Positions 1,239-46,144 of a stretch of 64,000 nt of DNA are shown piece after piece. Numbering within the stretch: the first letter of the stretch is position 1; each line of letters starts with the position of its first letter. The notes beneath the pieces are model-generated. The model was not told where the DNA came from, made no database searches, and was given only the letters and a program-made list of their open reading frames with translations. A program made the translations under genes and the position numbers. The stretch is taken from IMG/VR virus record IMGVR_UViG_3300008952_000004, positions 32,001 through 96,000 of that record, one strand, 5' to 3'. The DNA is from a virus.

Positions 1239-1252
1239 TTAAGGAGAAATAG

Positions 1253-2880: not shown

Positions 2881-2892
2881 GAGTAATTTTTT

Positions 2893-22100: not shown

Positions 22101-23924
22101 ATGGTAGATAAGAAAAAGAAGAAGAGTCAAAGGGTACCAATCGAATACACTAGCCGCGATTATAATTCTATTAAGAATGATTTGTTGGAGCATGCAAAAC
22201 GCTATTACCCTGATACCTACCAAGATTTTAATGATGCATCATTTGGTTCCTTAATGTTTGATACTGTTGCCTATGTTGGTGACATACTTTCTTTTTATTT
22301 GGATTATCAAGCCAACGAGACTTTTCTTGATACAGCATCTGAGTACTCAAACATTATTAGACATGCTCGGCGAATGGGATATGATCCATATGCCAGCGCC
22401 GTAGCTACAACTGGAAGGTGTCAATTTTTTATAACTGTACCTGCGAATGCAGCCGCCACCGGACCAGACGAAGCATATATGCCAATTTTACAAAGAGGTG
22501 CCAAATTAATTTCTAAATCTGGTGCCTTTTTTACCCTAGAGGAAGATGTTGACTTCGGTGCAAATAACACAGAAATTATTGTAGCATCGTCAGATGTTAA
22601 CGGATCACCGACATTTTATGCTATTAAAGCAACTGGTCTTGTCTTATCTGGAATAGAATATCAATCAGAGATACCTGTGGGAGATTTCAAGCCATTCCGG
22701 CGAGTCCAAATTCAAGAACCTGATCTAGTTGAGGTGACAAGTGTCGTGGACTCACAGGGACACATATGGCATGAAGTAGAATATCTTTCACAAGATGTAG
22801 TATATATTCAGATTAACAATCAAGACTACGACCACACCTTTGGATCCCCGCCGAAAATACTAAAGCCTATATCAGTACCTAGACGATTTATCATAGAGAG
22901 GAATCGATCAGGTGTTGCGCTACAGTTCGGCTCAGGCGAGTCTCTTGACGAATCGGATAGAACAATTGATCCTTCAAAAGTAGCAATTGCACAATATGGA
23001 CGAAATCACGTATCAGATCGTTCGTTTGATCCACATAAGTTGGTACGGCAAGACACCCTTGGGGCGGTCCCGGCAAACACTCATCTTACTGTAACATACC
23101 GATCAAACAATGTCGGTTCCGATAAAATTAACGTAGGGGTTGGGCAGATTTCTGAGATTGCAGCAAGTAGGTTTGTCTTTAAAGATCCGTCCACACTGAG
23201 CGCAATTCAAAAAAGCAAAGTAATTACTAGTCTGGAAGTAACTAATGAATACCCAATTACGGGTGAATTATTTAAGCCAACTGCTAAAGAAATTAGACAA
23301 AGAGCAAAAGGCGCACACGCAGCACAGTATAGGGCTGTTACTGCTCAAGACTATGAGTCATTATCATATGCTATGCCTCCAAAATATGGAAAAATTAAGC
23401 GTTGCTGTATTCTTCTAGACACAAACTCCTTGAAAAGAAATTTAAACTTATATGTGATATCGGAGGACGAAGACGGCAGATTCTTTCGGACAAACGATAT
23501 TGTTAGTTATAATCTGAAGTCTTGGCTAACAGATAAAAAAATGATGAATGATTATATTGACATCATTCCGGCAAGAATCGTTAATCTTGGGGTAAACTTT
23601 ACCGTGATAGCATCCGATAATACAAATAAATCTGATTGTTTAAGTCGATGCTATGTGGCTCTCAGTCAATATTTTGCACACAATAAACCAAATATAGGCG
23701 AACACTTTGACATTTCTATTCTTTATAAAATATTGAATGCTGTAGTGGGTGTTGATGATACTCTAGACATTGACGTAGAAGTAAAGGAAGGGGGCATATA
23801 TGCAAGCACCAAGTTTGATATTTGGACTCAAACCTCAGCCGACGGGCGCAAAATAAGAATGCCCGAGGATACTGTTTGGGAAATTAAGTTTACTGCTGAT
23901 GATCTTAGTGGGGCGGTGAAATAA
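22101..23924 (+). CDS. Baseplate wedge protein, T4 gp6-like (baseplate J family)
   Basis: YTSRDYNSIKNDL...YQDFNDASFGSLMFD..AYVGDILSFYLDYQANE.FL.TA; QFGSG; RAVTAQDYE. Confidence 0.88.
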   Translation: MVDKKKKKSQRVPIEYTSRDYNSIKNDLLEHAKRYYPDTYQDFNDASFGSLMFDTVAYVGDILSFYLDYQANETFLDTASEYSNIIRHARRMGYDPYASAVATTGRCQFFITVPANAAATGPDEAYMPILQRGAKLISKSGAFFTLEEDVDFGANNTEIIVASSDVNGSPTFYAIKATGLVLSGIEYQSEIPVGDFKPFRRVQIQEPDLVEVTSVVDSQGHIWHEVEYLSQDVVYIQINNQDYDHTFGSPPKILKPISVPRRFIIERNRSGVALQFGSGESLDESDRTIDPSKVAIAQYGRNHVSDRSFDPHKLVRQDTLGAVPANTHLTVTYRSNNVGSDKINVGVGQISEIAASRFVFKDPSTLSAIQKSKVITSLEVTNEYPITGELFKPTAKEIRQRAKGAHAAQYRAVTAQDYESLSYAMPPKYGKIKRCCILLDTNSLKRNLNLYVISEDEDGRFFRTNDIVSYNLKSWLTDKKMMNDYIDIIPARIVNLGVNFTVIASDNTNKSDCLSRCYVALSQYFAHNKPNIGEHFDISILYKILNAVVGVDDTLDIDVEVKEGGIYASTKFDIWTQTSADGRKIRMPEDTVWEIKFTADDLSGAVK

Positions 23925-25375
23925 TGGCAATCAAACGTTACATTGCAACTAAAGACACTACGATAGCAAATAGTTATCAAGCGAATCTATCGACAACAGC
24001 CTCTGGGTCAAACATGGGCGCCGCCGATGTAACTGAAGTATTCTCTATATATGGTCAAGTATCATCTAGTACATCAGGAAATTCACTTGAAGCTTCCCGC
24101 GCTCTATACTACTTTGATGTTGCCGATATTACCACGGACAGGACTAATGGAGACATTCCTAAATCCGGATCAGTGGATTTCGTATTAAAGTTAACAAATG
24201 CAGAACACCATAAGACAACTCCACAAAATTATGATATGCGAGTGATCGCAGTTTCAGAAAGTTGGACTGAGGGGTCCGGTTTAGATTTAGATAATTATAG
24301 AGATATTGGAGAATGTAATTGGAATTATCGCACATCTGCTAACGCTTGGGGAAATGGTAACGCAGCAGCAAAGGGCGGCGTTTTCCATACAGGAAGTGTG
24401 GAAGCGTGGTCTAATGAAATACAATTCAAACAAGCGTTTGGAGAAGACGTGACAGAAGATCTAGAAATAGTTATTACTCCTTTGGTTGAACACTGGATCG
24501 CAGGCACTGTTTCTAATAATGGAATAGGTGTCTTATTGTCTGGCTCATATGAGGATGGTACTAGCCTTCGGTCTTATTATACTAAAAAGTTCTTCGCTAG
24601 GAATAGTGAGTATTTCTTTAAAAGACCGAGAATCGAAGCTCGTTGGGATTCTTCTAAAAAAGATGACCGCGCAAATTTTTATGCCAGCAGTTCTCTGGGG
24701 GACACTGAAAATACAAATACAATATATCTATATAATAATCTTCGAGGACAGCTTACCAATATCCCAGGCTTGCATGCCCGCAACACACTAGTTGTTAAAC
24801 TTTATCGCGATGCTCTTACTGACAGTGCGCCTGTGGAAGTCACAGGTGGTTTGACATCAGACACTGGAATTTATACCGCATCGTTAGCCATGGACACGTC
24901 GGCTTCCGTATTGTATGATGTATGGTCGACTGGCTCGATACAGTTTTATACTGGTTCCATCACTGTTAAAAGTTTTGCAGCTACTGCCGAAAATCCTAAC
25001 AGCACTTACAACACATCTATTGTAAATTTAAAACCTTCGTATTCAACAAAAGAAACGGCGCGATTTCGCTTCTTTGTTAGAAAACAAAATTGGACTCCCA
25101 CTATTTATAATAAGGCTACAGAAACTTTAAATAGCGAAGTAATAAGCTCTGCGTATTATAAAATTTTCAGGATTTCAGACAACTATGAGGTAATGCCATA
25201 TGGGACAGGAAGCGAACAGCACACTAAAATGTCATACGATCAGAGCGGAAGTTATTTTGATTTAGATATGAGTATGCTTCAGAAGGACTATGCTTATGGT
25301 TTATCATTAACATATTATTTGAATGGAAAATATGTAGAACAACCAGAGGTATTTAAATTTAGAGTAGAAGGATAA
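23924..25375 (+). CDS. Virion structural protein (DNRLRE-like N-terminus, Ig-like C-terminus)
   Basis: KDTTI...SRALYYFDV...LKLTN pattern; eight [ST]GS motifs. Confidence 0.55.
   Translation: MAIKRYIATKDTTIANSYQANLSTTASGSNMGAADVTEVFSIYGQVSSSTSGNSLEASRALYYFDVADITTDRTNGDIPKSGSVDFVLKLTNAEHHKTTPQNYDMRVIAVSESWTEGSGLDLDNYRDIGECNWNYRTSANAWGNGNAAAKGGVFHTGSVEAWSNEIQFKQAFGEDVTEDLEIVITPLVEHWIAGTVSNNGIGVLLSGSYEDGTSLRSYYTKKFFARNSEYFFKRPRIEARWDSSKKDDRANFYASSSLGDTENTNTIYLYNNLRGQLTNIPGLHARNTLVVKLYRDALTDSAPVEVTGGLTSDTGIYTASLAMDTSASVLYDVWSTGSIQFYTGSITVKSFAATAENPNSTYNTSIVNLKPSYSTKETARFRFFVRKQNWTPTIYNKATETLNSEVISSAYYKIFRISDNYEVMPYGTGSEQHTKMSYDQSGSYFDLDMSMLQKDYAYGLSLTYYLNGKYVEQPEVFKFRVEG
25100..25109 (+). promoter_or_regulatory. 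Possible internal late promoter for the 3234-aa gene
   Basis: ACTATTTATA, identical to the 50760 and 61464 copies; 277 nt upstream of 25377, inside a CDS. Confidence 0.35.
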
Positions 25376-25376
25376 A

Positions 25377-28300
25377 ATGGGCGGCGGAATAAAGGATTTA
25401 TTTGGGAATTCGGATAGTGTTTTATCAAAGACACATATCAGAGATATAGCTAATGCTGATTCACCAGTTGAGTCATCAGAATATATTGAAAAATATCTTT
25501 TGGAAAAAGAGAGATTTCTTCCGACTGCCGATTTTTCTACAGCTAGTAATTTTGCTATGTATGGTTCCGCAGAACAATACGTAACAGATGCTTTACAAAA
25601 TATATACCAATACTACCCATATGATGGTTCTTTGACGGAGAAGATTGAGTGGATCAACACAGCGAATTATTATGATATATATATGTTCCAATTTTTGTAT
25701 CCGCGAACTTGTGGTTACGCCGTGTTTTCTCCCGACGGCTGGGGCACGCAAACTGATTTAATTGCTGATGCTGGGCTGACACCACAGCACGTATTTGGAT
25801 TGTCAAACAATCCGGAGTATATTCAGCTTAAAGCCGGTCCACACCCAGATCCAGATGCTGCCGCAAAAACTTTATCAAAACAATTTCCAGAACCTTGGGA
25901 CGGCACAGCCAATATATGGGACGATACCACAGGGGTTAATCGTGTTTCTAATATTGTTTTAGATCCTGCAAAGGGGGTTACTACTGAGTTTTGGTTTAAA
26001 AAAGATGGTTATGTTTCCTCGTCCGCAACAACAAGATTTGAATATTTGTTTGACGTATGGAATGGACAGAAGGGGACAGCAGAGGGGGAAACCTATGGAC
26101 GCTATTCTATTTTACATGACGGAACATCTACCGGAGCCATTAAATTAGGAGTGATGTCTGGGTCACAACTTCTTACGTGCGATTCCGGCTTAACAACCGC
26201 CGAGGTGTTTGATAATAAATGGCACCATATCGCGATTGCCTTTCAAAGTGGCTCGGATTGGGTTGAGGTTAATACTTTTTTCGACGGACAACACCATACT
26301 CGACAAACCAGTGTTGATCAAGCCAACGTTGTTATTGGAGAAATAACCGGCTCTCTGATCGCAAATATTGGCGCTGCGCGAATACCTACCATTTCTCAGG
26401 CAGGTACTGCTGCGCTCGCCTCGGCTAAAATAAAAGATGGCTATGGAAAACTATCCGGCTCCATTGACGAGTTTAGGTTTTGGAAAACAGCTAGGACTCC
26501 AAAACAGATCGGTCGTTTCTGGTTTACTCAAATTGCCGGTGGTACAAACACAGATAATAATAAATTCTCAGGATCCGCCGCACCGGTAGATTTAGGTTTT
26601 TATTATAAATTTAACGAGGGAAATACCGGGGACAATACAGTTGATTCGACCGTCTTGGACTATTCGGGACGCATATCGAATGGTACTTGGACCGGGTTTA
26701 TTTCTGACAAGTCGCGTGTTGCTGGGGCAATGAAATCTGCGATGATAGAATCTTCAGCTTCGGTATCTGAGTTTAAAGATCCGATCATTTATTCGACACA
26801 TCCAGACGTCACCGCTCTATCTGATCGATTATTATCAGAAGGAAAAGAGTGGGATTTAAACAACAATTCATCACTATATCATACAATGCCAGAGTGGATT
26901 ATTTCTGAAGATGCTGACGAAAATGGAAATACACTCAAAAAGTTGGCACAAATGCTCGGTGTATATTTTGATACGCTACACATGCAGATAAACAGTTTGC
27001 CTTCATTAGCTGAGAAGCGATACCCAGTAACCGATTTTATTGTACACGATCCAAATTTCATAGATTATAACCTTGGTGGTCCGAATACCGGTAAGACTAG
27101 AGAATACACATTTTTTCAGAAGCCGAAACCTACTGCAAAAATGTCGGTAGAACATTCTGGTATGGAAGCTTCAGAATTGTTTTCCGACGTCACTATCTTG
27201 AACCAACTGGCTAGTCGTGATGAACATCGGGAATTCGAATCTAAACTATATGATATTAAAAATACGATATATCAAAACATATATAATAATCTAACTTATA
27301 TCTACAAAACAAAAGGTACATTTAAAAGCTTCCGGAATCTTATGCATTGCTTTGGGATTGATGAGGATCTAATCGCCATTAACTTATACGCCAATGATGA
27401 ATCTTTTAAATATGATGATTCGCGCTATCGTTCTAAAACATTGCGGAAAAATTATATAGATTTTGCGACTTCCGATAGACAACAATCTACGGTGTTTCAA
27501 TCATCTAGTGTTTCCATATCTGATTCTCTTAGCTATATCCCCGGTGCTTATGATAAGCCCATGACGGTTGAGGCAAACATAATTTTCCCACTGAAGAAAG
27601 ATGAAAATGACACAAACTATTATGAATATAATTATTATTCTAGTTCATTGTTTGGTTGTCATGAAGCACTCCCGTCCGCGCCTACCAATTATACTTGGCA
27701 CTCAAACGATTCAGCGTCTTTTCAAGTCTATGTGGTAAGGCAAGAATTTCGCGGTAAAGATGCAAAATTTATTCTTTCTTCAAGTAATGGATATTTTCCA
27801 ACGTTAACAACACCCACGTTTAAAGATGTATATAACAATACTAATTGGCATTTTGCTGTACGCTTAGCTCCATCACAAGATGCGGTCAGTGGTTCGGTAA
27901 TCACAGGCTCATCTCCCGATCATTGGGATCTGGAGTTTTATGGTGTTAATACAGCACTAGATCAAATCGATAAAAAGTTTCACGTGTCGGGAAGTATATC
28001 GACTGTTGACGCACAAAATAATTTTGCCGCTCTAGCAAAAAGATTTTATCTTGGTGCCCATAGAACAAATTTTACTGGCAGTACTGTGTTAACAAACACA
28101 GATATTAAGGTGGGTTCCTTCTCTGTCTGGCAAGATCGTTTGTCGGACGAAGAAATAAATTCACATGCAAAAGATCCGAACAACGTCGGTCGAGATTATC
28201 CTTATGAAAACGCATATATGTTTGAGGGCGTAGACCCAAATATTGACATCACATATATTCCTAGGATTAAAACACATATTTTAAATTGGCAATTCGCAAC

Positions 28301-31300
28301 GATCACTGGCTCCACTGATGGAGTATATGGTGTTGATTATTATGGAGGCTCGGCGTGGAATTCCTCTTTTGAGGTCTTGGACATGACTTCCGGTTCTGAT
28401 GATAAATGGGACGTCCCATCGTTGTATAAAACGCACTACCCCGCTCGCGGTGATTGGTTCCTTCCAAATGATACAGTTGTCGAAACTGAATATCTATATA
28501 CAGCCAATCAAATTCTCCCAGAGACACTGACGGGTGACGATAACATCAAAATTTTAGCAGCAGACCGAGAAACGTTTGTAAGAGATACCATTCCAACAAA
28601 TCAGTTTTTTGCTATTGAAAAGAGTATGGCTCAGACAATTTCAAAAGAAATGCTGGATGTGTTAGGGGCGGTCACTGCTTTTAATAATCTTGTTGGTGAA
28701 CCGGTTAATAGATATCGACAAGAGTACAAGTCTCTAGAAAAGATGAGGGAAATATTCTTTCGTCGGGTTTCTGGGGAAATCGATTTCGACAGGTTTATGA
28801 ATTTTTATAGTTGGGTCGATGGAACCCTATCAGAAATGTTAGTGAGTCTGGTACCGGCTACTGCCAATGTATCGGACGGTATACGAAATGTTATTGAAAG
28901 TCATATCTTAGAAAGAAATAAATATTGGAATAAGTTTCCGACATTGGAAATGAAAGACAAGCCAATTATTGGGTTTGTTAAGGGTATTAAAGAATTAACA
29001 TATGACTGGAAACACGGTCACGCACCTCTTAACCCGACCCAATTCGTTAATGAAGACACAAATTGTCTTTGGTGGAAGGAGCGCGCTGAAGCTAGTGGGT
29101 CCGCAGGAGCACTTGGTTGGCAGGGCGCGTCTACGTCTGGAGATTCTTATGTAGATTCGGATCGTAACACTATACGACGTATTATAACTTCTGATATTTC
29201 AACAAACAAAATTCTTGCAACTGGAGAATATACAGATCCGATTGATTATCCAAACAGTGGAATTCCAAATGCGGCTCAAATAGAACTAGCACAGAGCGGA
29301 AGCAATTCTGCCGGAAGACAAGAATACAAGGGTAGTACATATGCTTTAAGAAGATTTACTAGACCTTATAAATTAAACTTAGATAATTCTAAAGAAGTCC
29401 GTTCAGGTCACAACCCTGCAAGAAACAATAAGGGTATTGATGTCTTCTGGGCTCAAGCTCGACGCGGAGGATCGACTTATGTAAATATGGATTTTGATTC
29501 CACTCTTGCAGGGTTTGATGGTCCAGAACCAAGCTGTGATGACGCCAAAATCCCAGTTCCGTTGCGTAAGGTGAGAAGACATGCTGCTTGGGAAGGCGCA
29601 GCAGGACAGCAACCCTTGGTTGGTATAGAGCCTATTAAAGCGAGAATAGTTGCACCATTTGTATATCTTTCTCAGTCATCTGATATAACCACGGCACGCT
29701 CATTAACTTTTTTTAATAATTCGGCAGACACAGCATATGCGGGGCTGCACGTTGATACATACGGACCTTCACAAGAAACCCCAATGCAGGGTCCATTTAC
29801 AGAGAAAAATGTCGGAGGACGTCAATACCGTCACGCTCCACTAAGCACCGGAGAAGACAATGTGACTAATCGGACTGAAGGATTCCGAATCTATAAATAT
29901 GGAGAATTCTTGTTTACACCACTCCGTGACGATAGCGGTACTTCCTTCCAACCGAGTTTGATACCTCGTGGATGGTATTACCGTGACGAAGTGGCAAAAA
30001 GACCGGTTAATATTAGAAACATCCAAACTGTGACATCTTCGAATGATCTTGGTAACTATTCAAATGTATTACAGCTTGTTAACACTCAGGACACGAATAC
30101 AAGTCCATGGTTTGTAAAGTTGCAGGCAGCAACAGGCTCTCAAGGGCTTTCTACTCTTATGTCGGGTAAGGCGAGTGATTTCGGTATTAGCGACGTCCCA
30201 GATAGACCAAAATTAAAATATTTTGCTAAACATTTAATGGGTGAAGAAAATTTAGCTGCCCCATTTACTGAAGAAGAAGTAACTGCATCTTTATCAAAAC
30301 ATAAAATAATTGAAAGATTCTCTGCTCCTGGCGGTCCCGACACAGCAGGTGATGCATATGGTGGGTTTGGGTTAAGCCAGATTACAACAATGTATTCTCC
30401 AAATAACTCTATCAACTATAGAAATCTTTCTGTAAGGACACCTTTAAACGCTTTATTAAAATCGCCCATGGGCAACTATGGTTCTTTTTCCGGAAGCACC
30501 TTGTCGATTTTAGGTGAAACGACTGCCCTGTCAGCATCTTATCATAAGGTAAATCGTAATGCAAGACTTCGCACAGAACTAGTTGGAGACTCACCATTTT
30601 CTTCTTCTTTGCACGGCTTTGACCGCGCCATTGTTCATTGCACTTCTTCGTATGACAACTGGTTTGTACAGCATGCAATCCCTGCAACTGACTTTGCTTA
30701 TGCTTGGATTACAGCCTCGACAAACAGAACCGATTATTGCACTTCGCTTGGCACCTCATCATTCATTAGCGCAAGTGAATATATGTCTTATATCAACACC
30801 GAAGAAGATAATGTCCGCTTGTGGGGCGCTACACCGAACGGTATAGCAGCTTGGTCTACTTATTTGGGTGAATATACAGTTACAACACAAACAGATTTTG
30901 TTGGTTTGAATCATCATATATATGCACCGGTTTCAGCAAGTACCAACATGTTTGGGTATGCATCGAGTCCTGAACAGGCATATTTGAATGATAGTTTCGT
31001 TGATCACCCGTCAGGTTTTGAACCACAAGATACAACACCTCCTGCAACACTGAATTCTATTCTTCTCAACCGGGATGGTCCTTACGGGTATCCTTCTTGG
31101 AAACAAATTCGAACTGGGGAACACCCAATTGTGAGATCTCACAAAAAGAACAATATTCTTTCTATAGGAGAAAAACCAAAGACGATTAATTTTGTTGTTG
31201 CAGGCGCACTCACTTCTAGCACAGAGTTACGCTCATCGCGGTTTACAAATTACACTGAACCGCCTGTATCATCAAAATATTACTCAATGATCCATCGTAT

Positions 31301-35081: not shown

Positions 35082-36193
35082 TGGCTAAATTTTTTAACCC
35101 TAAAGAGGACATAATTGATCTTCAGGTTACATCTTATGGGAAACATGCCCTTTCAAAAGGTGCTTTCGTTCCAAAGTATTATGCTTTTTTTGATGATGAC
35201 ATTTTATATGATTCTCAATGGGCATCTGCTTCTTATGGCGAACAACAAAATGAGATTAAAGAACGTTTAATAAACGAAACTCCCAGAATAAAAGTTGCAC
35301 CAGCGCTATCTGGAGTTGAAACAAATATTAAGAAGGCGGTGGAGATGGTTAAACATAATCTTGCCCACATCGGCGCCCAACAAATACAGCCCGCCAAGGA
35401 TAAACACTTTGCATTGCCAATGCCGCTTGGTAATAGCTCTTTAGGGAGTATCTCATTACCGGCTTGGGATTTATATTTTTTAAAGGGTGAAATATCGGAC
35501 TCGGCATATCACTATTCAGGATCCGCTCAGGCACCACATATAAGAACTCCTCAAATTAATGCAGAGATAACTTATAGAGTTACGCCGTTTACAAGTGCTC
35601 AGAAGATTCCATTAAGTGAAGCCGAGGCTAAAGTTAACGCAACAGGGATCGATGGTTCGACACTGAGTTCAGATGCTGACACTATTGGAGTTTGGGGTGG
35701 CTTATTTGACGACTTTATCGATGGCTCCAGGCTGAAGATTTATAAGGATTCGTTAATCATAGAATTGAATGAGGAAAATACAGATTACCTTGCAGATAAT
35801 TTTGACATCGAAGTATATGAAACCAGACAGGTCACAGGATCTGCCTATCCCGGCGACAAAGGTCTTCAGGTTGTTGAGGAATTAATCCCGTTGTATTTCG
35901 CTCGCGGTCGCCGCCCTGACACGGGTGTTTCATATCTTTCTGACGAACATTTCGATCTCGACGAATCAATAATAGACGCAGATTCTAATTATGTTGAATA
36001 TTTTTTCGAGATTAATGTGGATAAGGAAATTGAGACTTCCGAGCTATGCGCGCACTTACCTCATGAGAAGTCAAGAAGAAAGAATTTACTTAGAGAGGTA
36101 GACTGCGGACGAACCCAGGGCAAGACAATTAAAGATGCTGCTTACGGCGCATATGCTGATTCCATCACTGTTGATCCGGAGGATTGTGAATAA
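35081..36193 (+). CDS. Virion structural protein with tail-collar-like N-terminus
   Basis: IIDLQVTSYGKHALSKG...YYAFFDDDILYD; paralogous start to the 42744 gene. Confidence 0.55.
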   Translation: MAKFFNPKEDIIDLQVTSYGKHALSKGAFVPKYYAFFDDDILYDSQWASASYGEQQNEIKERLINETPRIKVAPALSGVETNIKKAVEMVKHNLAHIGAQQIQPAKDKHFALPMPLGNSSLGSISLPAWDLYFLKGEISDSAYHYSGSAQAPHIRTPQINAEITYRVTPFTSAQKIPLSEAEAKVNATGIDGSTLSSDADTIGVWGGLFDDFIDGSRLKIYKDSLIIELNEENTDYLADNFDIEVYETRQVTGSAYPGDKGLQVVEELIPLYFARGRRPDTGVSYLSDEHFDLDESIIDADSNYVEYFFEINVDKEIETSELCAHLPHEKSRRKNLLREVDCGRTQGKTIKDAAYGAYADSITVDPEDCE

Positions 36194-39100
36194 TGCCAGC
36201 AATAGGACAACAACAAATTCTGGGCGCCTTGGTGCCGGATATAAGTATCGATAAAATAACATTGGAGTCTGCACCTACAGTGCAAAAAAGGCGCCGAAGT
36301 GATCGCATTTCAGCGCACGTGCAAGAGAACAAGGTCGACGGGACTTCTTTAGAGTTTATTGAAGGATACCAGAACATCCACGCCGACCCTGAAAAAAATC
36401 TTACTGTCACATTGAGTATGAGCATTAAAGACCGTCTAGATAATGGCTCCATCACTACGTGGTTTAATAATCAAAACATTCATGAATTCTTACATGTGAC
36501 AGTCGTACAGTCGATCGATCCCTTTACCAGCAAGCTGTTATCAGCATCAAACAACGCCATTCAAATAGCTAATTTCAGTTCAGGACAAGATCAAGGCTGG
36601 GAACAACCTGGCGGCATGAAAGAAAAAATAATGTCTATGCTAATAGATATATCTGGAGATCCCGAATTTAAGGATTTTCAGAACAAATTCGGCATCGATG
36701 CAAGCTTAAACGGCGCACAATCTGAAGCAGTCTTTGAGTGGATGAATTCATTTATGACCACGAAAGGGATGACATTCTCTCAGATTGCCGCCCAAAACGA
36801 CATTGGCGATCTTATGGATAGTCAATATAGCGATGAAAATACCAATTCATTTGACGTGCCTTTCCAGCTTCAATTCGAATTACAGGGGACACCTCAACAT
36901 TTATCATACTTTGCCGTGGTTGCGTTTTCACCATCGGCAATTCAAAATAAATATGGCGTTCATATGGATGATCCATTCTTTATTGATATGATGACTGGTA
37001 ATACCGTAGGGGAGCTTGTTATTAACGGGAGTCGGGTGATTGACCAATCATATATTTATAGGATGATTGACGGTACGATTTATACAGGACCGGTTGAACA
37101 TATTAATGATTCTTGGTGGTGGGTTGGAGCAAACACAGCGACTGATGAGCCGCTTACGAGAGATCTGTACCCACATAGTAAAGTGCAAGATTTTCGAGTG
37201 CTTGAAAGATTGAAAGACATGAGGTTTGCTTTTACTGAAGCGCAGGCAAATTTGATGGACTCTGTTGGCAAATATAAAACACCACATTCAGAAAAAATAT
37301 CTTGGGATTTACAAAAAATATATTTTTCTAATTTTGCTATAACGACCACCCCTAATCATAATCTTAAATTCGCTTTCAGTATGGACTACGGTTCACTAGT
37401 GAGAGATAATACAAAATTTTCAAAACTTTTTAAGATTCCGAAGTCCGGATGGACAGCAGATACTCTAAAAGAATTGATGTCTGCTGTTGAGATAGCAAAC
37501 ATGACGATCCTTCGTCGCCGAGTATCAAATGAATATCAGGGCTTGAACGCTTTAGGCTCACCAGCCGATCTCCGAAATATATTTAATGAGGCAGAACAGG
37601 TGCCGGTGGTTATTGCTTCCGGTCGAGATGTTTCAGGAAAGCTGGAGGAAGTACCCTCTCCCATAGGGTTAATTAAAGAGTCTAAGATTCAAACCGCAGG
37701 TGACACGCCGCTGCATGCGATTCGGCATTTCGAAGCTGCTGACAACACAATGAGCACAGTCACTGACGGACATTATCAATATGGTGTAGAGCTTGAGATT
37801 AAAGATAACACTCATAAAAAAATAGCTAATCTGTTGCAGGATTTGCTTGTGCATAAAGCCGAGTTTGATAAATACGCCTTAGCTGCAAGTGTACCAACTA
37901 CTGGTACCAAAGGCAGTGATGCGTCTAGCGTGACCACCAGATCTGGTTACGGTCTGTCTGCTTCGCAAACACTGGAAAAAAGAACACTGGGTGTATTTGA
38001 TCCGGTCAGAAATCGCTTTACTGATAAATTTATAAAAGAACAAGAAGCATTATATAAAACTCCTACAGTGTTTATCTCAGACAAGCCATGGGAAATGGCA
38101 CCTTTTGCTTATTTTGTATTTCTCAGTTTAATATCTGGAGGCACAGATCTGGATATCAGCGGCAATACAATAGAACAGCTTGTGAAATCGATTGCCCCTG
38201 ATACTGGAACACCACAAGGTATAAGCCTCTTTCAAAAGCTTATGGACGATCTAGTTTCCAAAGTCGAGGGTTATATAAAATCACAGATGGCAGAGTCTAG
38301 CAATAAAACTGGCGCCACTAAAGCGGCTATGCCTTTGGCACCAAGTCACCGCACTTTTAAAATAGCACACTGGTTTGGTGAAACATGGGATAGCAATTTA
38401 CCAAAAGTGGGTTATGATTATTTGTCGGAAGGTACAATTGATGTGACGGATCCGACACAGGGTTTAAAAAATATTCCACTGAATCAATACGAAAATGTGG
38501 TTAATGCTGAAACCACAAAACATTGGAAATCTTTAGGTGAACAGTTGGAGGTTACTAAGGGCGGCAAATCTATCAACACGGGCGATAATCTTGATGCAAC
38601 AAAATGGGAATATTTAACGCCATCTAATGTGGACCTCGGTGATAACGGCGGCTGCTTCCAAACAGATCCGGTCAGTTCCGAAAAGAACGCTATGATGAAG
38701 TCTGCAATTCAAAAATTAAATCAAACCAAGCAAAGTCCATTTTTACCTATTATGCCCTTCCTTGATATAAAACCAATTTTAAAGAGTGTTGGCAAAAGAG
38801 CAGAGACAAGAGAAACCGCGACCGGAAACCACTCCGCTGCAAACTTATTAATGACCAAGGTAAACGTGGCAGACATATTAGCCAACACCGTAAACCTCAC
38901 GGTCCATGTTCCAGATATTATCGCGACTGGGACAGGCGCCAAGTCTTTGCTTGAGGGCATCACAAATAGAGCAGCCGACGATCCTTGGGTTGATGCCACT
39001 AAGAACTTGGGGGATGCTTACGATTTTGTCGATCCAATTGATCCGACCAAGGTCCGGAAACAAAGTCCAGTAATATACGAAGAAGACGCTATAGTTTTAT

Positions 39101-39891
39101 TAGAAGAACTTGTGTCTGATACTCTTGATCTTGCTGATGTGGGTCTGAAAAACAAACCTCAAGCTGTTGTTAACAAAGATATCCTTGAGAAAAAATTTAG
39201 ATTTTATGATCACTCGTTTTACAATTTAAATAATGGGTTTAATGCGATAAATAAGAAAGTCTCGGAAATATTGACAAAGGGTTCTGTTATCCCAGCGTCA
39301 GATGGAGGCTTACCACCGCAAATACAAAATGAGTTCATCAAGATGCCAAATCAAATTAAATCACTGTTTATCGGAAGTTTGAAACCGGACGTGGTAAATT
39401 ATGACATGTCTGCAAATAACGGCGCATACTTCAGCAATCCAATTAACCACGCAACTATTATTTTTAACTATAAGATGATTCGAAAAGTAGAAGTCCTCAC
39501 AGGATATAAAGTGGATGAAACAGGCGCACCAATGCTTAAACAGCCAATATGGACCGCGCTGGGCGATGCGGTATTACAAAAAATGAAAGGTAAGGACATT
39601 CTTTGTAGACATACAAAATATACAGATCGAAGTTTGGGTATCGAAATGCCTTCCTCGATGAAGTTGCCCGTCTATGACAGGTACTTTACTATTTCAGTTC
39701 CTGCTGGCGATAAAAAGAAGAAAAAACCAGCAGCTTCCACCCAACAAGTTATTAAAAAAGCGATTCAAAATATCTTAACTCAAAATAAAAATATACCGGT
39801 AAAACATCTACATACAATAGATGTGAGCATGAAAAACGTTGAACAAAGTCTTGAACATAAGGCTATAATACAAGAGCACAAATGGAAATAA
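36193..39891 (+). CDS. Large hypothetical virion protein, 1232 aa
   Basis: Long ORF coupled by TAATG within the tail operon. Confidence 0.65.
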   Translation: MPAIGQQQILGALVPDISIDKITLESAPTVQKRRRSDRISAHVQENKVDGTSLEFIEGYQNIHADPEKNLTVTLSMSIKDRLDNGSITTWFNNQNIHEFLHVTVVQSIDPFTSKLLSASNNAIQIANFSSGQDQGWEQPGGMKEKIMSMLIDISGDPEFKDFQNKFGIDASLNGAQSEAVFEWMNSFMTTKGMTFSQIAAQNDIGDLMDSQYSDENTNSFDVPFQLQFELQGTPQHLSYFAVVAFSPSAIQNKYGVHMDDPFFIDMMTGNTVGELVINGSRVIDQSYIYRMIDGTIYTGPVEHINDSWWWVGANTATDEPLTRDLYPHSKVQDFRVLERLKDMRFAFTEAQANLMDSVGKYKTPHSEKISWDLQKIYFSNFAITTTPNHNLKFAFSMDYGSLVRDNTKFSKLFKIPKSGWTADTLKELMSAVEIANMTILRRRVSNEYQGLNALGSPADLRNIFNEAEQVPVVIASGRDVSGKLEEVPSPIGLIKESKIQTAGDTPLHAIRHFEAADNTMSTVTDGHYQYGVELEIKDNTHKKIANLLQDLLVHKAEFDKYALAASVPTTGTKGSDASSVTTRSGYGLSASQTLEKRTLGVFDPVRNRFTDKFIKEQEALYKTPTVFISDKPWEMAPFAYFVFLSLISGGTDLDISGNTIEQLVKSIAPDTGTPQGISLFQKLMDDLVSKVEGYIKSQMAESSNKTGATKAAMPLAPSHRTFKIAHWFGETWDSNLPKVGYDYLSEGTIDVTDPTQGLKNIPLNQYENVVNAETTKHWKSLGEQLEVTKGGKSINTGDNLDATKWEYLTPSNVDLGDNGGCFQTDPVSSEKNAMMKSAIQKLNQTKQSPFLPIMPFLDIKPILKSVGKRAETRETATGNHSAANLLMTKVNVADILANTVNLTVHVPDIIATGTGAKSLLEGITNRAADDPWVDATKNLGDAYDFVDPIDPTKVRKQSPVIYEEDAIVLLEELVSDTLDLADVGLKNKPQAVVNKDILEKKFRFYDHSFYNLNNGFNAINKKVSEILTKGSVIPASDGGLPPQIQNEFIKMPNQIKSLFIGSLKPDVVNYDMSANNGAYFSNPINHATIIFNYKMIRKVEVLTGYKVDETGAPMLKQPIWTALGDAVLQKMKGKDILCRHTKYTDRSLGIEMPSSMKLPVYDRYFTISVPAGDKKKKKPAASTQQVIKKAIQNILTQNKNIPVKHLHTIDVSMKNVEQSLEHKAIIQEHKWK

Positions 39892-39897
39892 AAAAAT

Positions 39898-42678
39898 ATG
39901 ACTAATGGATTTGGCAAAGATTTTGGAAATAAGTTCGCAGATTTAGATGTTAAACTCGACCCGAACAGTAAGGTTCCAAAAATAGATTTCGGAAAAGAAC
40001 ATTTCACCACAGGCGGATTTCTTGGATTTACTACCGACGGTTGGACTAAACCTCAGCCCTTTCAAACAGACATAAATCTGCAAGGCACTAGCGCAAATAG
40101 AAAGTTTGTTGTATGTGAAAAAAATTGGTATACACACGTTGCAGCGTTTGCATCGGGTCAAAGACTTTCCGGTCGACCACTCAATGACTATGACACCTTC
40201 TTGGAATTAGCTCGAAAATATTGGACCATAAACCCCAAAGCCGTCGAACCTTCACTCATTTTCTTGAACCCGAGCATGATTCCGGACGAAGCGTTAGGTG
40301 TTCCATTTTTGATGAAGTTTAGTCAACCACAATATAATCCAGCACCCCCGCACGCTGGTCTTCCAGATCATATTAACCTATGGTTTGAAATTTATCAACA
40401 AATGGTGCTCTATCCAGATAAAAGTCAAATATATGATACTCAAATCATCCCAACTGCGATCCCGAATGTAAACATAACACAAAAAAATTATTCACCCGCG
40501 AAGTGGAAACAATTACTCGTGGGTGCAGAAGCCACTGTGGCTCCCGGTGAATTTGGAGTCTTGAACGAGAATGTAAAATATGAATATTTAGCGTTTCAGT
40601 TATCCTTGCCGTACAGTAAGGAGCAGTCAGATAACTCTACATTACCTAAGCAATCATATGTCGAGGTAATTCCAGAGTATAATTTTGATGCACAAAAATA
40701 TGAGCACGCAATTTCAGTAGAAACCGTACCAGAAACCATTCTACCAAACTTGTATAGTCTTCAAATTGTTTCAAATACACAACCAGATGAAATACTGGGC
40801 GTTAACGGACACATTATAAACCATGTTTCCCTACTTGCAAGGCTTAAAGTGGTTATGAACTGGGCAAACGCCACGAAAATCGTAAAAAACAATACTAACT
40901 ATTTTACAACTTACGCTGATAAGATATCTGAATTTGCAGCGATGCCTGGAGGCGTCAGCGCAGACGAAGACCTTATGTCGGTTGCGAATAAATATAAAAA
41001 TATAATTATCCCATCTCAAGAAATATCCAATTTAAAGGACATGGCAGAGAGAAAAGAACTGTATCCAATTCACACAACAATAAATATTTCGACTGAAAAA
41101 TTATCTCAATTTACCGACATATTGAGAGAGACTAATTTGCTTGATCGATTTACTATGGAGATAGTCAAGACCTATATTAACAAAGGGCACGATGTAAAAA
41201 GATTTCGGGAAGTTAATGAGTTACTTATTACCGGTGAAACTCCACTCGGCGAGCCCATAATTAAAAAATCTTCCAAAGAGGCTCTAAGAGATCAGCGCGT
41301 GTGGGATATTACAAAGACTCTGGAAGCAATTTCTTTGCTTAGTTTTGACACAGGAAAACCAGAGGTAACAGAAACACTAGAGCAACATCTGGACGCAGTT
41401 TCAGATTTAATTGTTTTGGATCCAACTGGAGACATAGAAACGCAGGAAGCAGTTCCTTCTGAGCATAAATTCTATAACAATTTGATGACTCTTATAGCAG
41501 TACAAAAATTAAAAAAGTTCTTTAAAACACGTATACGAACATATGAAGACTTGATGAAGGGCAAGTTGAATTACTCTGAGACTGTGTTATACAGAATAGC
41601 AAAAATCCCCACCGACGAGGGCGTTGCCATTGGTGATAGTGAGATCCAAAACATATGGCTAGCTAACATTAGTGAGCAGGATGTTATAACATATGTCGAT
41701 ACACAATTGAAATATGGCGAAGAATATCGCTATTCTATATATGCATATCAAATGGTACTAGAATCTGTTTATCGCTATCAAGATGTTCACGTCAATGGAA
41801 GCGAGACAGCAGCAGGTTACGATCCCGACATGCCAGCAATTGCAACTGTGGTATTACAACCACAGGTTTTGTTGGTGGAGCAAGAGGTCCATCGTTATAG
41901 CTTTATGATACTAGATAGTCCTCCTCCACCACCACAAGTTGATATTGTGCCGTATAAAGATAACCCAAGACAAATTCTTATTAATTTCAGTCCGTCTGTT
42001 GATGATTATTTAGCAGACCCGATCATTATAGAGATGGCTGACCAAACTGTGTTTGACGAAATCAGGAAGGCACAAAAAAAACCAGCGCCAGAAAAAATCC
42101 GGTTCAACGCTGACGATACAACTGGGGCTAATGGGTATTATGAGGTCTATAGAATGAACCGGAAACCGAGCCGGTGGACCGACTTTGCTGGTCATCGGAG
42201 GGCGATAATCGCGAACAGTTATGAACAAGGTTCTAACATAAACGCATCCACGGCATCATTGCGAGATAGTATAACTTCTAACACGAAATATTATTATATG
42301 TTCAGGATGGTTGATACTCACAGTCATATTTCGAATCCGACAGTTATTTATGAGATTGAAATGATTGAGGATCGCGGCGCGCATTATTTTACAAAAAAGA
42401 TTGTAGAACTCAAGCCCCGAGAACCCCGCCTGCCCTCAAAACCATGTCGGCGATTAATCGAGATCAAGCCCGCCTTGGATCAACAGTTTATGGATATGGA
42501 AAGCTTTGGGGATATGGAATCTGCTTTCAATGTTGATGCCCCTCGATTGGGTAATGCTATTTCCCCTTGGGACAAAAAATTTAAAATTAGATTTGTTTCA
42601 AGAAAAACAGGCAAAAAATTGGATCTTAATTTGACTTGCAAGGTCAAACTGGAAAAGGGCAATCCAGATAATGAATAA
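39898..42678 (+). CDS. Large hypothetical virion protein with FN3-like C-terminal domains
   Basis: DTQLKYGEEYRYSIYAY; PPPPPQVDIV...YEVYR...TKYYYMFRMVD..SHISNPT. Confidence 0.6.
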   Translation: MTNGFGKDFGNKFADLDVKLDPNSKVPKIDFGKEHFTTGGFLGFTTDGWTKPQPFQTDINLQGTSANRKFVVCEKNWYTHVAAFASGQRLSGRPLNDYDTFLELARKYWTINPKAVEPSLIFLNPSMIPDEALGVPFLMKFSQPQYNPAPPHAGLPDHINLWFEIYQQMVLYPDKSQIYDTQIIPTAIPNVNITQKNYSPAKWKQLLVGAEATVAPGEFGVLNENVKYEYLAFQLSLPYSKEQSDNSTLPKQSYVEVIPEYNFDAQKYEHAISVETVPETILPNLYSLQIVSNTQPDEILGVNGHIINHVSLLARLKVVMNWANATKIVKNNTNYFTTYADKISEFAAMPGGVSADEDLMSVANKYKNIIIPSQEISNLKDMAERKELYPIHTTINISTEKLSQFTDILRETNLLDRFTMEIVKTYINKGHDVKRFREVNELLITGETPLGEPIIKKSSKEALRDQRVWDITKTLEAISLLSFDTGKPEVTETLEQHLDAVSDLIVLDPTGDIETQEAVPSEHKFYNNLMTLIAVQKLKKFFKTRIRTYEDLMKGKLNYSETVLYRIAKIPTDEGVAIGDSEIQNIWLANISEQDVITYVDTQLKYGEEYRYSIYAYQMVLESVYRYQDVHVNGSETAAGYDPDMPAIATVVLQPQVLLVEQEVHRYSFMILDSPPPPPQVDIVPYKDNPRQILINFSPSVDDYLADPIIIEMADQTVFDEIRKAQKKPAPEKIRFNADDTTGANGYYEVYRMNRKPSRWTDFAGHRRAIIANSYEQGSNINASTASLRDSITSNTKYYYMFRMVDTHSHISNPTVIYEIEMIEDRGAHYFTKKIVELKPREPRLPSKPCRRLIEIKPALDQQFMDMESFGDMESAFNVDAPRLGNAISPWDKKFKIRFVSRKTGKKLDLNLTCKVKLEKGNPDNE

Positions 42679-42698
42679 AGCGTTTTTGTTACTAGAGA

Positions 42699-42708
42699 AC
42701 TATTTATT
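42699..42708 (+). promoter_or_regulatory. Putative late promoter (CTAWTTA motif)
   Basis: ACTATTTATT in the intergenic gap, followed by an AGGAG RBS. Confidence 0.6.
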
Positions 42709-42743
42709 CCGTAAGCCTATATACTATTAACAGGAGAAAACAA

Positions 42744-43658
42744 ATGGCATTTCTTGACAACTCCGGCGACATTATTCTTGACGCTGTTTTAACTGATACC
42801 GGAAGGTTTAGACTAGCAAAGGGGGATGGCAGTTTTAAGATTGCTAAATTTGCCCTTGCGGATGACGAAATAAATTACGAACTTTATAATAAAAGCCATT
42901 CCAGCGGAAGTGCCTACTACGATTTAGAGATTCTGCAAACACCATGCCTTGAAGCTTTTACGAACAATACGTCTTCGGTTAAATATAGACTTATGTCGAT
43001 AGCACGAACAAACTTGCTATATTTGCCTGTACTTAAATTGAACGACAAAAAATTTCCAGGCAGAACGGATACTGCCAGCACACACGTTGTGGCAGTTGAC
43101 AAAGAAACTGAAAATATTATGAATGTTCAAGACGCTGGTAGTATGTACGGTGAACGACCGAAAGATTCGCCATGGCAAATTCAGCTCGACCAAGGGTTGG
43201 ACACGAATGAGCTTCCACCGAGTATGAATATCGATGCAGATTTGGTTGAAACACAATACATTGTTCAAATTGATAATCGTTTTGGAAGTATTGTATCCAA
43301 AAACGGACACCCCGCTGCTGTTTCGTTTATCGACGACGACAGCGTTGCAACATATTACTTTTCTTCGAACACTGATGATCAGTTTGTTACAAACAACTCC
43401 AATGATGACGCCGACGCAGAGAGTGAAGTTATTGCGGGACCACGCGGCACAAATTTTGCTTTTAAGATCGCATCTTCGATAGAACTTAACAGCAGTACGT
43501 ACTTGTTTGAAAAACTGGGAAGCACCGCTGCATCAGCCGGGGCAAAGCCCTCTCTTGGTTCGGACATATATTATATTGACAGCATTGTGCGGGTTACTGG
43601 AGCAACTACGGGATATAGTGTTGATATTCCAGTCCGCTTTGTTAAGAAGAAAGCGTAA
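42744..43658 (+). CDS. Virion structural protein with tail-collar-like N-terminus
   Basis: IILDAVLTDTGRFRLAKGDGSFKIAKFALADDEINY resembles the DUF3751 N-terminal half. Confidence 0.55.
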   Translation: MAFLDNSGDIILDAVLTDTGRFRLAKGDGSFKIAKFALADDEINYELYNKSHSSGSAYYDLEILQTPCLEAFTNNTSSVKYRLMSIARTNLLYLPVLKLNDKKFPGRTDTASTHVVAVDKETENIMNVQDAGSMYGERPKDSPWQIQLDQGLDTNELPPSMNIDADLVETQYIVQIDNRFGSIVSKNGHPAAVSFIDDDSVATYYFSSNTDDQFVTNNSNDDADAESEVIAGPRGTNFAFKIASSIELNSSTYLFEKLGSTAASAGAKPSLGSDIYYIDSIVRVTGATTGYSVDIPVRFVKKKA

Positions 43659-43677
43659 ACAATAAAAGGAAAAATCT

Positions 43678-44865
43678 ATGGCAACCACATTTAAAACATT
43701 TTTGAGCAACGACATTGCAGCATCTCGCACGATGCTCCATGAAGCAATTCCAATCACTGGGTCGCTGGTTTCGGGGACGTATGGTACCGGACCTGTTGAT
43801 CTTGGCTCTGAACCACATATAAAGAGCTATTCTCACGGAATGTTCCAGTCAGTATATGATTATCCATACCTGAGTTCTTCCGCAAATCACATTTTTGATA
43901 TTACGATCGGGCTATCTCCAAGTGGAAGCCTTTATTCTTCAACCACGAGCCAGAAAAGCAAAAAAGCGAATATTTATAACCAAATGGCGCAAATCCTGAT
44001 GGGTCATGACGCAACTGGTTCTATTCGAGAGTTTGACGAAGATGGAAACATTGTTGCCGGTGGAAATAAACTTCAAGAGGTTTTCTTTCTAAACTTTTCT
44101 CGCCTCCTCACAAAAGACGAAATTAAAAAAGGGTCCTTTGAATTAGAACTTGGCGTAAACAGTGATTACTCCGAGGATACCAAAGTAGCTCAAAAGCGAA
44201 TTAAAATCACTGATGCTAGCGGCTCCGACGGATTTCACGTCAATTCGCCCGCTGGCGAGTACGGCATCTTGTATGCTCAAACTGCTGCTGGTACTACACC
44301 ATTGTTACATAGCGAGGGTGTCAATTTACCGAATGCGAATTCTTCCAGAATTGGCAATGCTAGTTATCATCCCCCTTGTGGTTTAATATTCTATCAGGCA
44401 GGCATCATTGTTGTGTCTGGTTCAGTTTTTAATGACGCAACGGGCTCTGCTACCGCATTGGGCACAGGCATCTTGCACACAAACAACGTTGACTCTATGG
44501 AGATGCTGAACGGGAAAGGTTATACAGGATTCGGGTTTGTGACCGGATCTGCTATCGGTGTTTGTGCTGACCGAATTAGAAATCGAATTTATAATATTCA
44601 ATTCAACAACACAACAGAATTGAATTCTTCAATTTATTTCTGTCGTGTTAATCACAATGATTTCAATTATAGTTCAAACCCAACTTATTTGTCTGGTAGT
44701 AAAATTCGAATGAAAAATGCGACAACAGACAATCCAGCTACATATATCACTACGGTTGGTTTATATTCAGCAGATAATGAGTTGTTGGCAGTAGCAAAGC
44801 TCAGTGAGCCTTTGAAGAAGGACCCGTCAACTGAAATGACTTTGCGAGTACGTTTAGACTACTAA
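43678..44865 (+). CDS. Virion structural protein with tail-collar-like C-terminus
   Basis: Ends ITTVGLYSADNELLAVAKLSEPLKKD...LRVRLDY. Confidence 0.6.
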   Translation: MATTFKTFLSNDIAASRTMLHEAIPITGSLVSGTYGTGPVDLGSEPHIKSYSHGMFQSVYDYPYLSSSANHIFDITIGLSPSGSLYSSTTSQKSKKANIYNQMAQILMGHDATGSIREFDEDGNIVAGGNKLQEVFFLNFSRLLTKDEIKKGSFELELGVNSDYSEDTKVAQKRIKITDASGSDGFHVNSPAGEYGILYAQTAAGTTPLLHSEGVNLPNANSSRIGNASYHPPCGLIFYQAGIIVVSGSVFNDATGSATALGTGILHTNNVDSMEMLNGKGYTGFGFVTGSAIGVCADRIRNRIYNIQFNNTTELNSSIYFCRVNHNDFNYSSNPTYLSGSKIRMKNATTDNPATYITTVGLYSADNELLAVAKLSEPLKKDPSTEMTLRVRLDY

Positions 44866-44877
44866 ATCGATATAAAG

Positions 44878-44887
44878 ACTAATTAAT
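44878..44887 (+). promoter_or_regulatory. Putative late promoter (CTAWTTA motif)
   Basis: ACTAATTAAT, 16 nt before the ATG at 44894; no SD. Confidence 0.55.
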
Positions 44888-44893
44888 AATGTT

Positions 44894-46144
44894 ATGCCAC
44901 TGTACCCATTTGAACCAAACGATGTTTTTTATAATCGTGTAGAAACTCGCCCAAAGGTGGAGTTCTTTATATACGATACAAAAGTATATTATAATAACAA
45001 TGGAAATGATATAGGACAGCACAGTGATCAGGCGACACATGTACCGTCTGGGCACATATCTCTATACGAAATGAATGTTGATAGAGACACAGATGCTGAT
45101 AATCAACTAATACACCCATTTATCACAAAAGAGAGTGGGATTACTGCTTTTAAGACTGTTAGTACTTCTAATTTTAATTCTGGGTTTCTTTATGGAGAGG
45201 AAATAGAAGGTAGCTATCCGTTGTCGGCTTCACTGGCTTTTTATCTTTATCGAAGCGAGATAGCTCCGGATATCTCCGGCGGCAAAGTAAATCGCCCCCA
45301 TCTACTGGCTTTGAAAAATACGCTCAATCATTACAAATTTCTAAGTAATCATCATGCATATTCTAGTAGTCTAGGAGACAAGGGCACCGACGATGTTCGT
45401 CTGATAAGCATCCCGTCTATTTTTTATGGCTCTAGCATAGAGAAAGGGAGCGTGAGTTTAAGGTTCTATGTCACCGGTACACTTGTTGGAGAACTTCAAG
45501 ACATTCACAAAAATGGTGAACTAATACAGGTCAGCGGCGCCGCCAACGATCTAGGTGCTGATTTCGGTTCCGGATCAGTAGCCGGAGTTGTCTTGTACAA
45601 TGAGGGGTTTGTTGTCTTGACCGGTAGTTGGTCTTTAGACCCTGTTCACACAGGATACTATACTGCTTCGGCTAATGGAATACCTCAGTGGCTAGGATTT
45701 GGTCAATCTGTCGGAAGGGATCAGTCAGATTCGAATTTGAGTTTGCCGAATTCTTCTTGGGGGGTAACCTTTAGAGGTATAAATTATGTTCCAACACTGA
45801 CGATGATGGCAAATGCTCCGAAGGGCATGTATAACCATTCAAACAATCCAACATATAAAGACTTCGGTCAAGTTGAAAAACTACCAGCTTCAGGATCAAA
45901 GATGTTTAAAGAATTTACTGAATTTAAAATAAAAAATACTGTAAGTTCTAGTTGGGATGTGCTAACATCAAGTAATATACCGAGCTATTCTACGAATTCT
46001 GCTTCTTTTGAGAAGCATACATATATTTCAAAGATTGGTATATACGATGAGCAGAAAAATCTTATTGCAATTGCAAAGCTGGCAAAACCGATAAAGAAGG
46101 CAGAACAAGATGCTTACACTTTTAAACTTAAACTAGATTTTTAA
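44894..46144 (+). CDS. Virion structural protein, C-terminal paralog of the 43678 gene
   Basis: Ends ISKIGIYDEQKNLIAIAKLAKPIKK...FKLKLDF; shares FNYSSNPTY/YNHSNNPTY and G..FYQAG/GVVLYNEG segments with the 43678 gene. Confidence 0.6.
   Translation: MPLYPFEPNDVFYNRVETRPKVEFFIYDTKVYYNNNGNDIGQHSDQATHVPSGHISLYEMNVDRDTDADNQLIHPFITKESGITAFKTVSTSNFNSGFLYGEEIEGSYPLSASLAFYLYRSEIAPDISGGKVNRPHLLALKNTLNHYKFLSNHHAYSSSLGDKGTDDVRLISIPSIFYGSSIEKGSVSLRFYVTGTLVGELQDIHKNGELIQVSGAANDLGADFGSGSVAGVVLYNEGFVVLTGSWSLDPVHTGYYTASANGIPQWLGFGQSVGRDQSDSNLSLPNSSWGVTFRGINYVPTLTMMANAPKGMYNHSNNPTYKDFGQVEKLPASGSKMFKEFTEFKIKNTVSSSWDVLTSSNIPSYSTNSASFEKHTYISKIGIYDEQKNLIAIAKLAKPIKKAEQDAYTFKLKLDF

Follow-up and report, generated by a model that had tools for sequence, protein, structure and literature searches.

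A candidate O-glycosylation tag, [ST]-[GA]-S, on outer baseplate and fibre proteins of Far-T4-type phages

Why should a subset of the virion proteins of one phage carry the tripeptide serine or threonine, glycine, serine ([ST]GS) several times more often than expected? The question is raised by a 64,000-nucleotide stretch of IMG/VR record IMGVR_UViG_3300008952_000004, bases 32001-96000 of one 189.7-kb contig of a marine T4-like phage, which we refer to as the window (coordinates are those of the window unless marked genome). The original prediction read the motif as a modification sequon on exposed baseplate and fibre proteins, supplied with sugar by a cluster at 1-7.5 kb and forming a glycan shield. 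We consider a recognition tag that is read by a phage enzyme to be the best explanation, and we rate as about even the chance that the motif is a phage-encoded virion O-glycosylation sequon, started by a GT4 pair of glycosyltransferases (GTs).

Excess of an ordered tripeptide in baseplate proteins

Measured protein by protein against shuffled sequences, five baseplate proteins of 483, 3234, 370, 395 and 416 amino acids together held 43 [ST]GS sites where 6.2 were expected, a roughly sevenfold excess. The strongest were the 483-residue protein encoded directly after the gp6-like gene (23924-25375; 8 sites vs 0.80 expected, z 8.1), which has no Pfam or PHROG match, the giant 3234-residue protein in the gp7 position (25377-35081; 22 vs 3.69, z 9.6) and the 395-residue protein p395 (43678-44865; 8 vs 0.77, z 8.5), joined by the 416-residue p416 (44894-46144; 3 vs 0.67) and the 370-residue p370 (35081-36193; 2 vs 0.22), all on the plus strand. 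Five of the 22 sites in the giant protein, at residues 261-398, lie near or over its LamG-like domain (PF13385, residues 185-378), and p395 and p416 are adjacent paralogues (hhalign 99%, E 9e-18) with one motif position in common. Two further sites were found in the gene at 51824, three in a partial gene at 62717 and one each in the 2353- and 1334-residue proteins, and none in the 1232-residue, 926-residue, gp6-like, SbcCD, TerL or portal proteins. The hand counts behind the original prediction were all exact on recount, as was the observation that serine follows 8 of the 12 [ST]G dipeptides in both the 483-residue protein and p395, and with z between 8 and 10 in the three strongest proteins the shuffles also ruled out composition as their cause.

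The tripeptide stands out without being looked for. When all tripeptides were ranked in the five enriched proteins, SGS came first (26 vs 3.4 expected, p 8e-15) and TGS second (17 vs 2.7, p 6e-9), the third-ranked reaching only p 2e-4, and the same scan of other large virion proteins returned nothing comparable. Partial motifs were not in excess ([ST]G followed by a residue other than serine, 47 vs 58; GS preceded by a residue other than serine or threonine, 26 vs 30), so that shuffles, scan and partial-motif counts together exclude a bias in composition or dipeptides. The order of the residues matters, TGS occurring 17 times and SGT twice. Position by position, the enrichment was 7.6x for serine and 6.2x for threonine at position 1, 7.0x for glycine and 3.1x for alanine at position 2, and 7.0x for serine at position 3, where threonine (0.8x), asparagine, aspartate and glycine were at or below expectation; the consensus is therefore [ST]-[GA]-S. 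Hydrophobic residues flank it more often than background (49% and 46% vs 33%). The 44 sites examined at the nucleotide level were encoded by 39 different 9-mers, a diversity that places selection on the protein and rules out a DNA-level motif such as GATC within GGATCN.

Across the genome, six top proteins (the five above and a 167-residue protein beyond the window) contained 47 sites vs 6.6 expected, and all other open reading frames (ORFs) 33 vs 32.9. The excess is thus limited to baseplate and fibre proteins, the 167-residue protein and part of the tail sheath, and the major capsid protein (genome 99389-101221) was not among the enriched ORFs. The 167-residue protein, encoded just upstream of the scaffold and capsid genes (genome 97808-98311; L002:1808-2311), has 4 sites vs 0.41 expected and no family match, and may be a head or neck decoration protein with the same tag. 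The sheath protein (genome 104021-106891; L002:8021-10891) is 956 residues long, with about 420 extra N-terminal residues ahead of the conserved sheath core; of its 4 sites (1.1 expected), two fall within this extension.

Distribution across the clade

The best TerL matches were to Flavobacterium phage immuto (46%) and Microcystis phage Mel-JY01 (44%), and in both TerL and portal trees the phage groups with RM378 (clade support 100/100 in each), with T4 and T4-like cyanophages standing apart. By these trees it is a member of the Far-T4 group of RM378-like T4 relatives (PMC4360716). The motif-bearing baseplate module lies downstream of gp25-like and gp6-like wedge genes, and the gp6-like gene (22101-23924, plus strand), itself free of the motif, opens the enriched block in all relatives. 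Excesses were found in immuto (genes after gp6 and fibres, 61 seen vs 13.3 expected), Mel-JY01 (block after gp6, 45 vs 5.9), RM378 (cluster at 64.8-76 kb, 21 vs 3.3) and a 269-kb jumbo contig, G005, whose TerL is 31% identical (fibre cluster, 82 vs 13.6); distant IMG/VR loci with gp6 near GT genes likewise showed an excess just after gp6. SGS and TGS were the top two tripeptides in Mel-JY01 and ranked third and fourth in the repeat-rich immuto block.

By contrast, the baseplate (gp6-gp12, wac) and fibre (gp34-37) regions of T4 held 12 sites vs 17 expected, and the structural region of a T4-like cyanophage, with its giant structural proteins, 26 vs 20.7; no tripeptide in these controls surpassed p 1e-5 (best p 1e-4 to 1e-5). 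T4-type baseplate folds as such therefore do not bring the motif with them, and a general property of T4-type baseplates and fibres is ruled out. The hosts of the motif-positive phages belong to Bacteroidota, Rhodothermota and Cyanobacteria, and this spread over three phyla favours a phage enzyme over a host enzyme as the reader of the motif.

Two observations concern the relatives themselves. In the fibre/spike proteins of immuto (gp101, L003:37658-40819) the motif lies inside regular repeats, for example SGSFSGSF and then GDGSGLTGI; the tripeptide HAE is strongly over-represented in these proteins as well (10 vs 0.16), suggesting a distinct family of repeats. The C-terminal domain common to p395 and p416 is found in RM378 too, and in the 484-kb phage LR756508.

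Turnover of sites and their place in predicted structures

The p395 family has more than 8000 members in aquatic metagenomes, and 53 homologues of p395 averaged 5.45 sites vs 0.76 expected, with six positions widely conserved and others coming and going in variable regions. Orthologues from 80 marine IMG/VR loci were enriched 6.0x for p395, 7.1x for p416, 5.3x for p370 and 3.5x for the C-terminal part of the giant protein. The neighbouring 1232- and 926-residue proteins (36193-42678, plus strand), which have no match in Pfam, PHROGs or the ESM Atlas, carry no site here and serve as an internal negative set; their orthologues (46 and 81, respectively) were depleted to 0.4x each (18 vs 46.0 and 18 vs 43.5), as were those of SbcCD (0.5x) and a RuvC-like protein (0.3x). 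The 304-residue protein between the two groups (42744-43658, plus strand) has one conserved site and no excess elsewhere (20 vs 28.7). Since the variable 1232- and 926-residue proteins and the capsid lack the motif, a shield on all exposed proteins, as first proposed, is not supported, and shielding as a function is conjecture.

When conserved and intermediate-frequency sites were set aside, sporadic sites were still in excess in p395 (73 vs 34, in 29 columns), p416 (99 vs 29, in 44 columns) and p370 (25 vs 9), counts whose variance is inflated by kinship between the sequences but whose ratios are 2 to 3.4, whilst two control families showed no such excess. Within a column the whole tripeptide was retained 2-3x better than control G-centred tripeptides, with single positions retained about equally, from which it follows that the three residues are kept or lost as a unit. 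Judged from these alignments, some sites are conserved and new ones are repeatedly gained in variable loops and insertions.

AlphaFold models of p395 and p416, of moderate confidence (predicted local distance difference test scores of 65 and 71), were used to place the sites. The 39 motif positions of the p395 family fell in coil (22), insertions (4), element edges (7), helices (4) and strand interiors (2), and the 60 of the p416 family in coil (25), insertions (9), edges (18), helices (7) and a strand interior (1). Only 3 of these 99 positions are thus in a strand interior vs about 20 expected, as about a fifth of reference tripeptides are. In the models the sites strongly avoid strand interiors and lie in loops and hairpin turns, many of them in a hypervariable loop. 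Neither model matches a solved fold, and for p395 no search hit rose above noise (Foldseek best E 0.35; VIA-align best Z 3.4).

These positions bear on a purely structural reading, in which the motif is a turn or loop peculiar to the clade, needed for folding, subunit contacts or a clade-specific chaperone, which receives no covalent modification, and the operon described below serves another purpose. Several features agree with such a role: sites occupy hairpin turns and element edges, glycine is typical of turns, the flanks are hydrophobic, the immuto fibres carry the motif in regular repeats, and core sites are conserved across homologues of 50-80% identity and between paralogues. However, the homologous baseplate proteins of T4 and cyanophages manage without the motif, equally turn-prone tripeptides ([ST]GT, [ST]GN, [ST]GD, [ST]GG and SGT) are not enriched, the motif turns up in the LamG domain, the p395 fold, fibres and the sheath extension, which are unrelated as folds, and hypervariable loops and insertions continue to acquire new copies. 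We therefore regard a structural or assembly motif as unlikely, though worth keeping in view.

The glycan operon and its GT4a-GT4b pair

The cluster that opens the window, proposed as the supplier of the sugar, does hold nucleotide-sugar enzymes (1-7469, plus strand): a uridine diphosphate-glucose dehydrogenase, a nucleotidyltransferase, a RuBisCO-like protein, three short-chain dehydrogenase/reductase-type epimerases or reductases and a cupin isomerase. It is, however, only half of a glycan operon of about 17 kb that starts 9 kb upstream of the window, and the four glycosyltransferases lie 3-9 kb upstream of the window. The genes of the upstream half (genome 22810-32513; locus L001) encode a PD-(D/E)XK nuclease, GT4a, GT4b, a 548-residue GT2 (123 bits), a WecB-like epimerase, GT2_4, a PIG-L deacetylase and a formyltransferase. 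GT4a and GT4b match Glycos_transf_1 at 44.7 and 38.8 bits (Pfam cut-off 26.4) and have an E-x7-E motif, conserved in family alignments, at residues 303 and 285; neither matches a named NCBIfam equivalog, nor a GtfA or GtfB model. The second-best match of GT4a among PDB sequences is the chlorovirus glycosyltransferase B736L (E 4e-6), and the best of the 548-residue GT2 is GalT1 (5hea), which we take to be an enzyme of the serine-rich repeat adhesin glycosylation pathway.

GT4a and GT4b lie side by side, in conserved synteny, in immuto, Mel-JY01, RM378 (with a divergent GT4b), the jumbo contig and about 150 IMG/VR loci. Of these loci, none that extends far enough downstream lacks GT4b, and a search with a GT4a profile for further relatives without it returned about 69 informative loci, all of which carry GT4b. 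Every phage with a motif excess has the adjacent pair, and on this comparative evidence it is GT4a-GT4b, and not the genes for sugar synthesis, that forms the motif's conserved partner.

The single departure is LR756508, which keeps GT4a and lacks GT4b. There GT4a is followed by a cytidylyltransferase (cytidine monophosphate (CMP)-sugar synthetase) and a GT29 sialyltransferase-like gene (305432-309877; L012:7432-11877), which suggests a remodelled glycan system, possibly of sialic-acid type; its GT4a has no close relative in IMG/VR. No enriched ORF was present over 91% of this genome (113 vs 80.5), the baseplate block retained a weak residual excess (5 vs 1.7), and a scan for an alternative sequon gave no outlier tripeptide. 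LR756508 falls within the motif-positive clade, where its sister group is immuto plus Mel-JY01 (TerL 96/95, portal 93/95). It is most simply read as having lost GT4b and the motif excess secondarily and together, which is suggestive and a single event.

Could the target of the operon be DNA or the host envelope, and its pairing with the motif a coincidence of phylogeny? Phage GT clusters are known to hypermodify 5-hydroxymethylcytosine DNA (bioRxiv 10.1101/2023.12.21.572611), GT4a adjoins a PD-(D/E)XK nuclease gene in most loci, and GT4a persists in LR756508 where the motif excess does not. On the other side, the genome has no ThyA-family deoxycytidine monophosphate hydroxymethylase, and a Tet/JBP search, whose control was uninformative, gave no match; as for the envelope, no lipid-carrier priming enzyme (Bac_transf or WecA-type) is present in the genome, and Pfam scans of the operon ORFs, several of which match nothing, returned no flippase (Wzx), polymerase (Wzy) or ABC exporter. 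We hold this explanation to be quite unlikely.

The motif might also be a tag for something other than a phage glycosyltransferase: a different modification (phosphorylation, acylation or ADP-ribosylation), an enzyme of the host, or a partner that binds it non-covalently. That the motif is ordered and specific, turns over and lies in loops argues for a reader without naming it, and the link to the GTs is correlative. Nevertheless, no alternative enzyme turned up, although no systematic search was aimed at one, hosts in three phyla make a common host enzyme unlikely, and the single lineage with a weak residual excess lost GT4b specifically; such a reader seems to us quite unlikely.

Several neighbouring genes are of interest in their own right. 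Within the sugar operon, the RuBisCO large-chain-like protein (1253-2443; PF00016, 112 bits) sits beside the nucleotidyltransferase, and a 106-residue Mpo1-like (DUF962) protein (6325-6645; 99 bits) belongs to a family unusual for a glycan cluster. Upstream of the operon, a 442-residue protein fuses a PIN domain to a PhoH-like ATPase (genome 19390-20718; L001:5390-6718). The 1334-residue protein encoded upstream of the baseplate genes (9574-13578) combines a VanY-type D-Ala-D-Ala carboxypeptidase domain with an Amidase_2 domain and is probably a tail-associated cell-wall hydrolase, and a single 1052-residue ORF (47598-50756) is a fused SbcCD, with an SbcD-like phosphoesterase (residues 1-223) and an SbcC/SMC-like ATPase (369-1031).

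Discussion

Taken with the rivals above, the O-glycosylation reading would run as follows. The [ST]-[GA]-S motif, in loops and hairpin turns with mostly hydrophobic flanks, would serve Far-T4-type phages as a short recognition tag on their outer baseplate and fibre proteins. A soluble phage glycosyltransferase may read the tag in the host cytoplasm and start an O-linked glycan on one of its hydroxyls, position 1 being the likelier acceptor because serine and threonine are equivalent there, and the lack of a lipid route in the genome fits a soluble, cytoplasmic acceptor. The reader would be one enzyme of the GT4a-GT4b pair, more likely GT4b, and the glycan would be extended by the remaining transferases together with the operon's variable set of nucleotide-sugar genes. 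The existence of a modification, its nature as a sugar, the acceptor residue and the role of the coat are our inference. The fuller statement, that Far-T4-type phages sugar-coat their outer baseplates and fibres at [ST]-[GA]-S sites which GT4b reads together with GT4a, whilst the varying downstream operon diversifies the glycan, we put tentatively, at somewhat under an even chance.

An ordered and specific motif, its loop position, its repeated gain, its confinement to one clade, its co-occurrence with GTs and their nested joint loss give the modification sequon comparative support, short of proof, and several points weigh on the other side. The link to GT4b is a single loss event, and the motif and the GT pair are otherwise near-universal in the clade, so that shared ancestry could explain why they occur together. 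Several sites are deeply conserved, including the one common to p395 and p416, which lies at a strand end, as a structural turn would be, and hydrophobic flanks are also compatible with a structural role. The fast-evolving and probably exposed 1232- and 926-residue proteins lack the motif, both structural models are of only moderate confidence, and LR756508, with GT4a, a CMP-sugar synthetase and a GT29-like gene, indicates that a glycan system is possible without the motif.

If true, [ST]-[GA]-S would be the first protein-glycosylation sequon to be defined in a bacteriophage, in an abundant aquatic clade with thousands of members, and sequence alone would suffice to predict which sites are glycosylated. 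The large, fast-changing sugar operons without export genes in Far-T4-type phages would be accounted for, and glyco-engineering would gain a compact cytoplasmic O-glycosylation tag. The claim also touches on the masking or tuning of the adsorption apparatus in marine phages. The cultured members immuto, Mel-JY01 and RM378 make the claim directly testable.

Comparison with known systems

To our knowledge, only a few actinobacteriophages are known to glycosylate the proteins of their particles, with no sequence rule, and we are aware of no three-residue sequon described for mycobacteriophage virions. We met with no [ST]-G-S phage sequon in the literature searched, and the Far-T4 paper (PMC4360716) makes no mention of glycosylation. 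The mycobacteriophages Che8 and Rita glycosylate their virions with phage-encoded glycosyltransferases (Freeman et al. 2023, Cell Host Microbe, as summarised in PMC11256854). The phage described here resembles them in having glycosyltransferases of its own (two GT4, one GT2 and one GT2_4), and for the mycobacteriophages that summary gives covalent, cytoplasmic glycans with a proposed 'glycan shield'. There, again according to the summary, the modification was shown chemically and the target is the major capsid protein, whereas here it is a prediction from sequence, the capsid is not enriched and baseplate and fibre proteins would be the targets. The lineages differ as well, ours being a myovirus lineage of Gram-negative and cyanobacterial hosts.

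Chloroviruses encode cytoplasmic enzymes that glycosylate their capsid at the atypical sequons NTXT and NIPG (PMC9614988). The likeness lies in viral machinery independent of the host lipid-carrier route, in a short, non-canonical context and in the match of GT4a to B736L; unlike the present motif, which has no asparagine and occurs in tail proteins, their glycans are N-linked to the asparagines of a eukaryotic virus capsid, and N-x-[ST] was not enriched in our five proteins (47 vs 48.3). The general O-glycosylation system of Bacteroidota recognises D-[ST]-[AILVMT] on exported proteins outside the cytoplasm. It offers the parallel of a three-residue O-sequon, and some hosts of the clade are Bacteroidota; however, the reading preferred here places the reaction in the cytoplasm, and D-[ST]-[AILVMT] was not enriched in the five proteins (20 vs 17.3).

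GtfA and GtfB form an adjacent pair of GT-B-fold O-GlcNAc (N-acetylglucosamine) transferases acting on serine-rich repeat adhesins, GtfB being non-catalytic. As would be the case for GT4a-GT4b, an adjacent GT-B pair starts O-glycosylation of serine in Ser-small-Ser contexts and GT2-type extension follows. The phage pair differs in that both GT4a and GT4b keep the E-x7-E motif and give no hit to NCBIfam models of GtfA or GtfB, and where the adhesins present their acceptors in long repeats, the candidate sites of the phage are dispersed in folded proteins.

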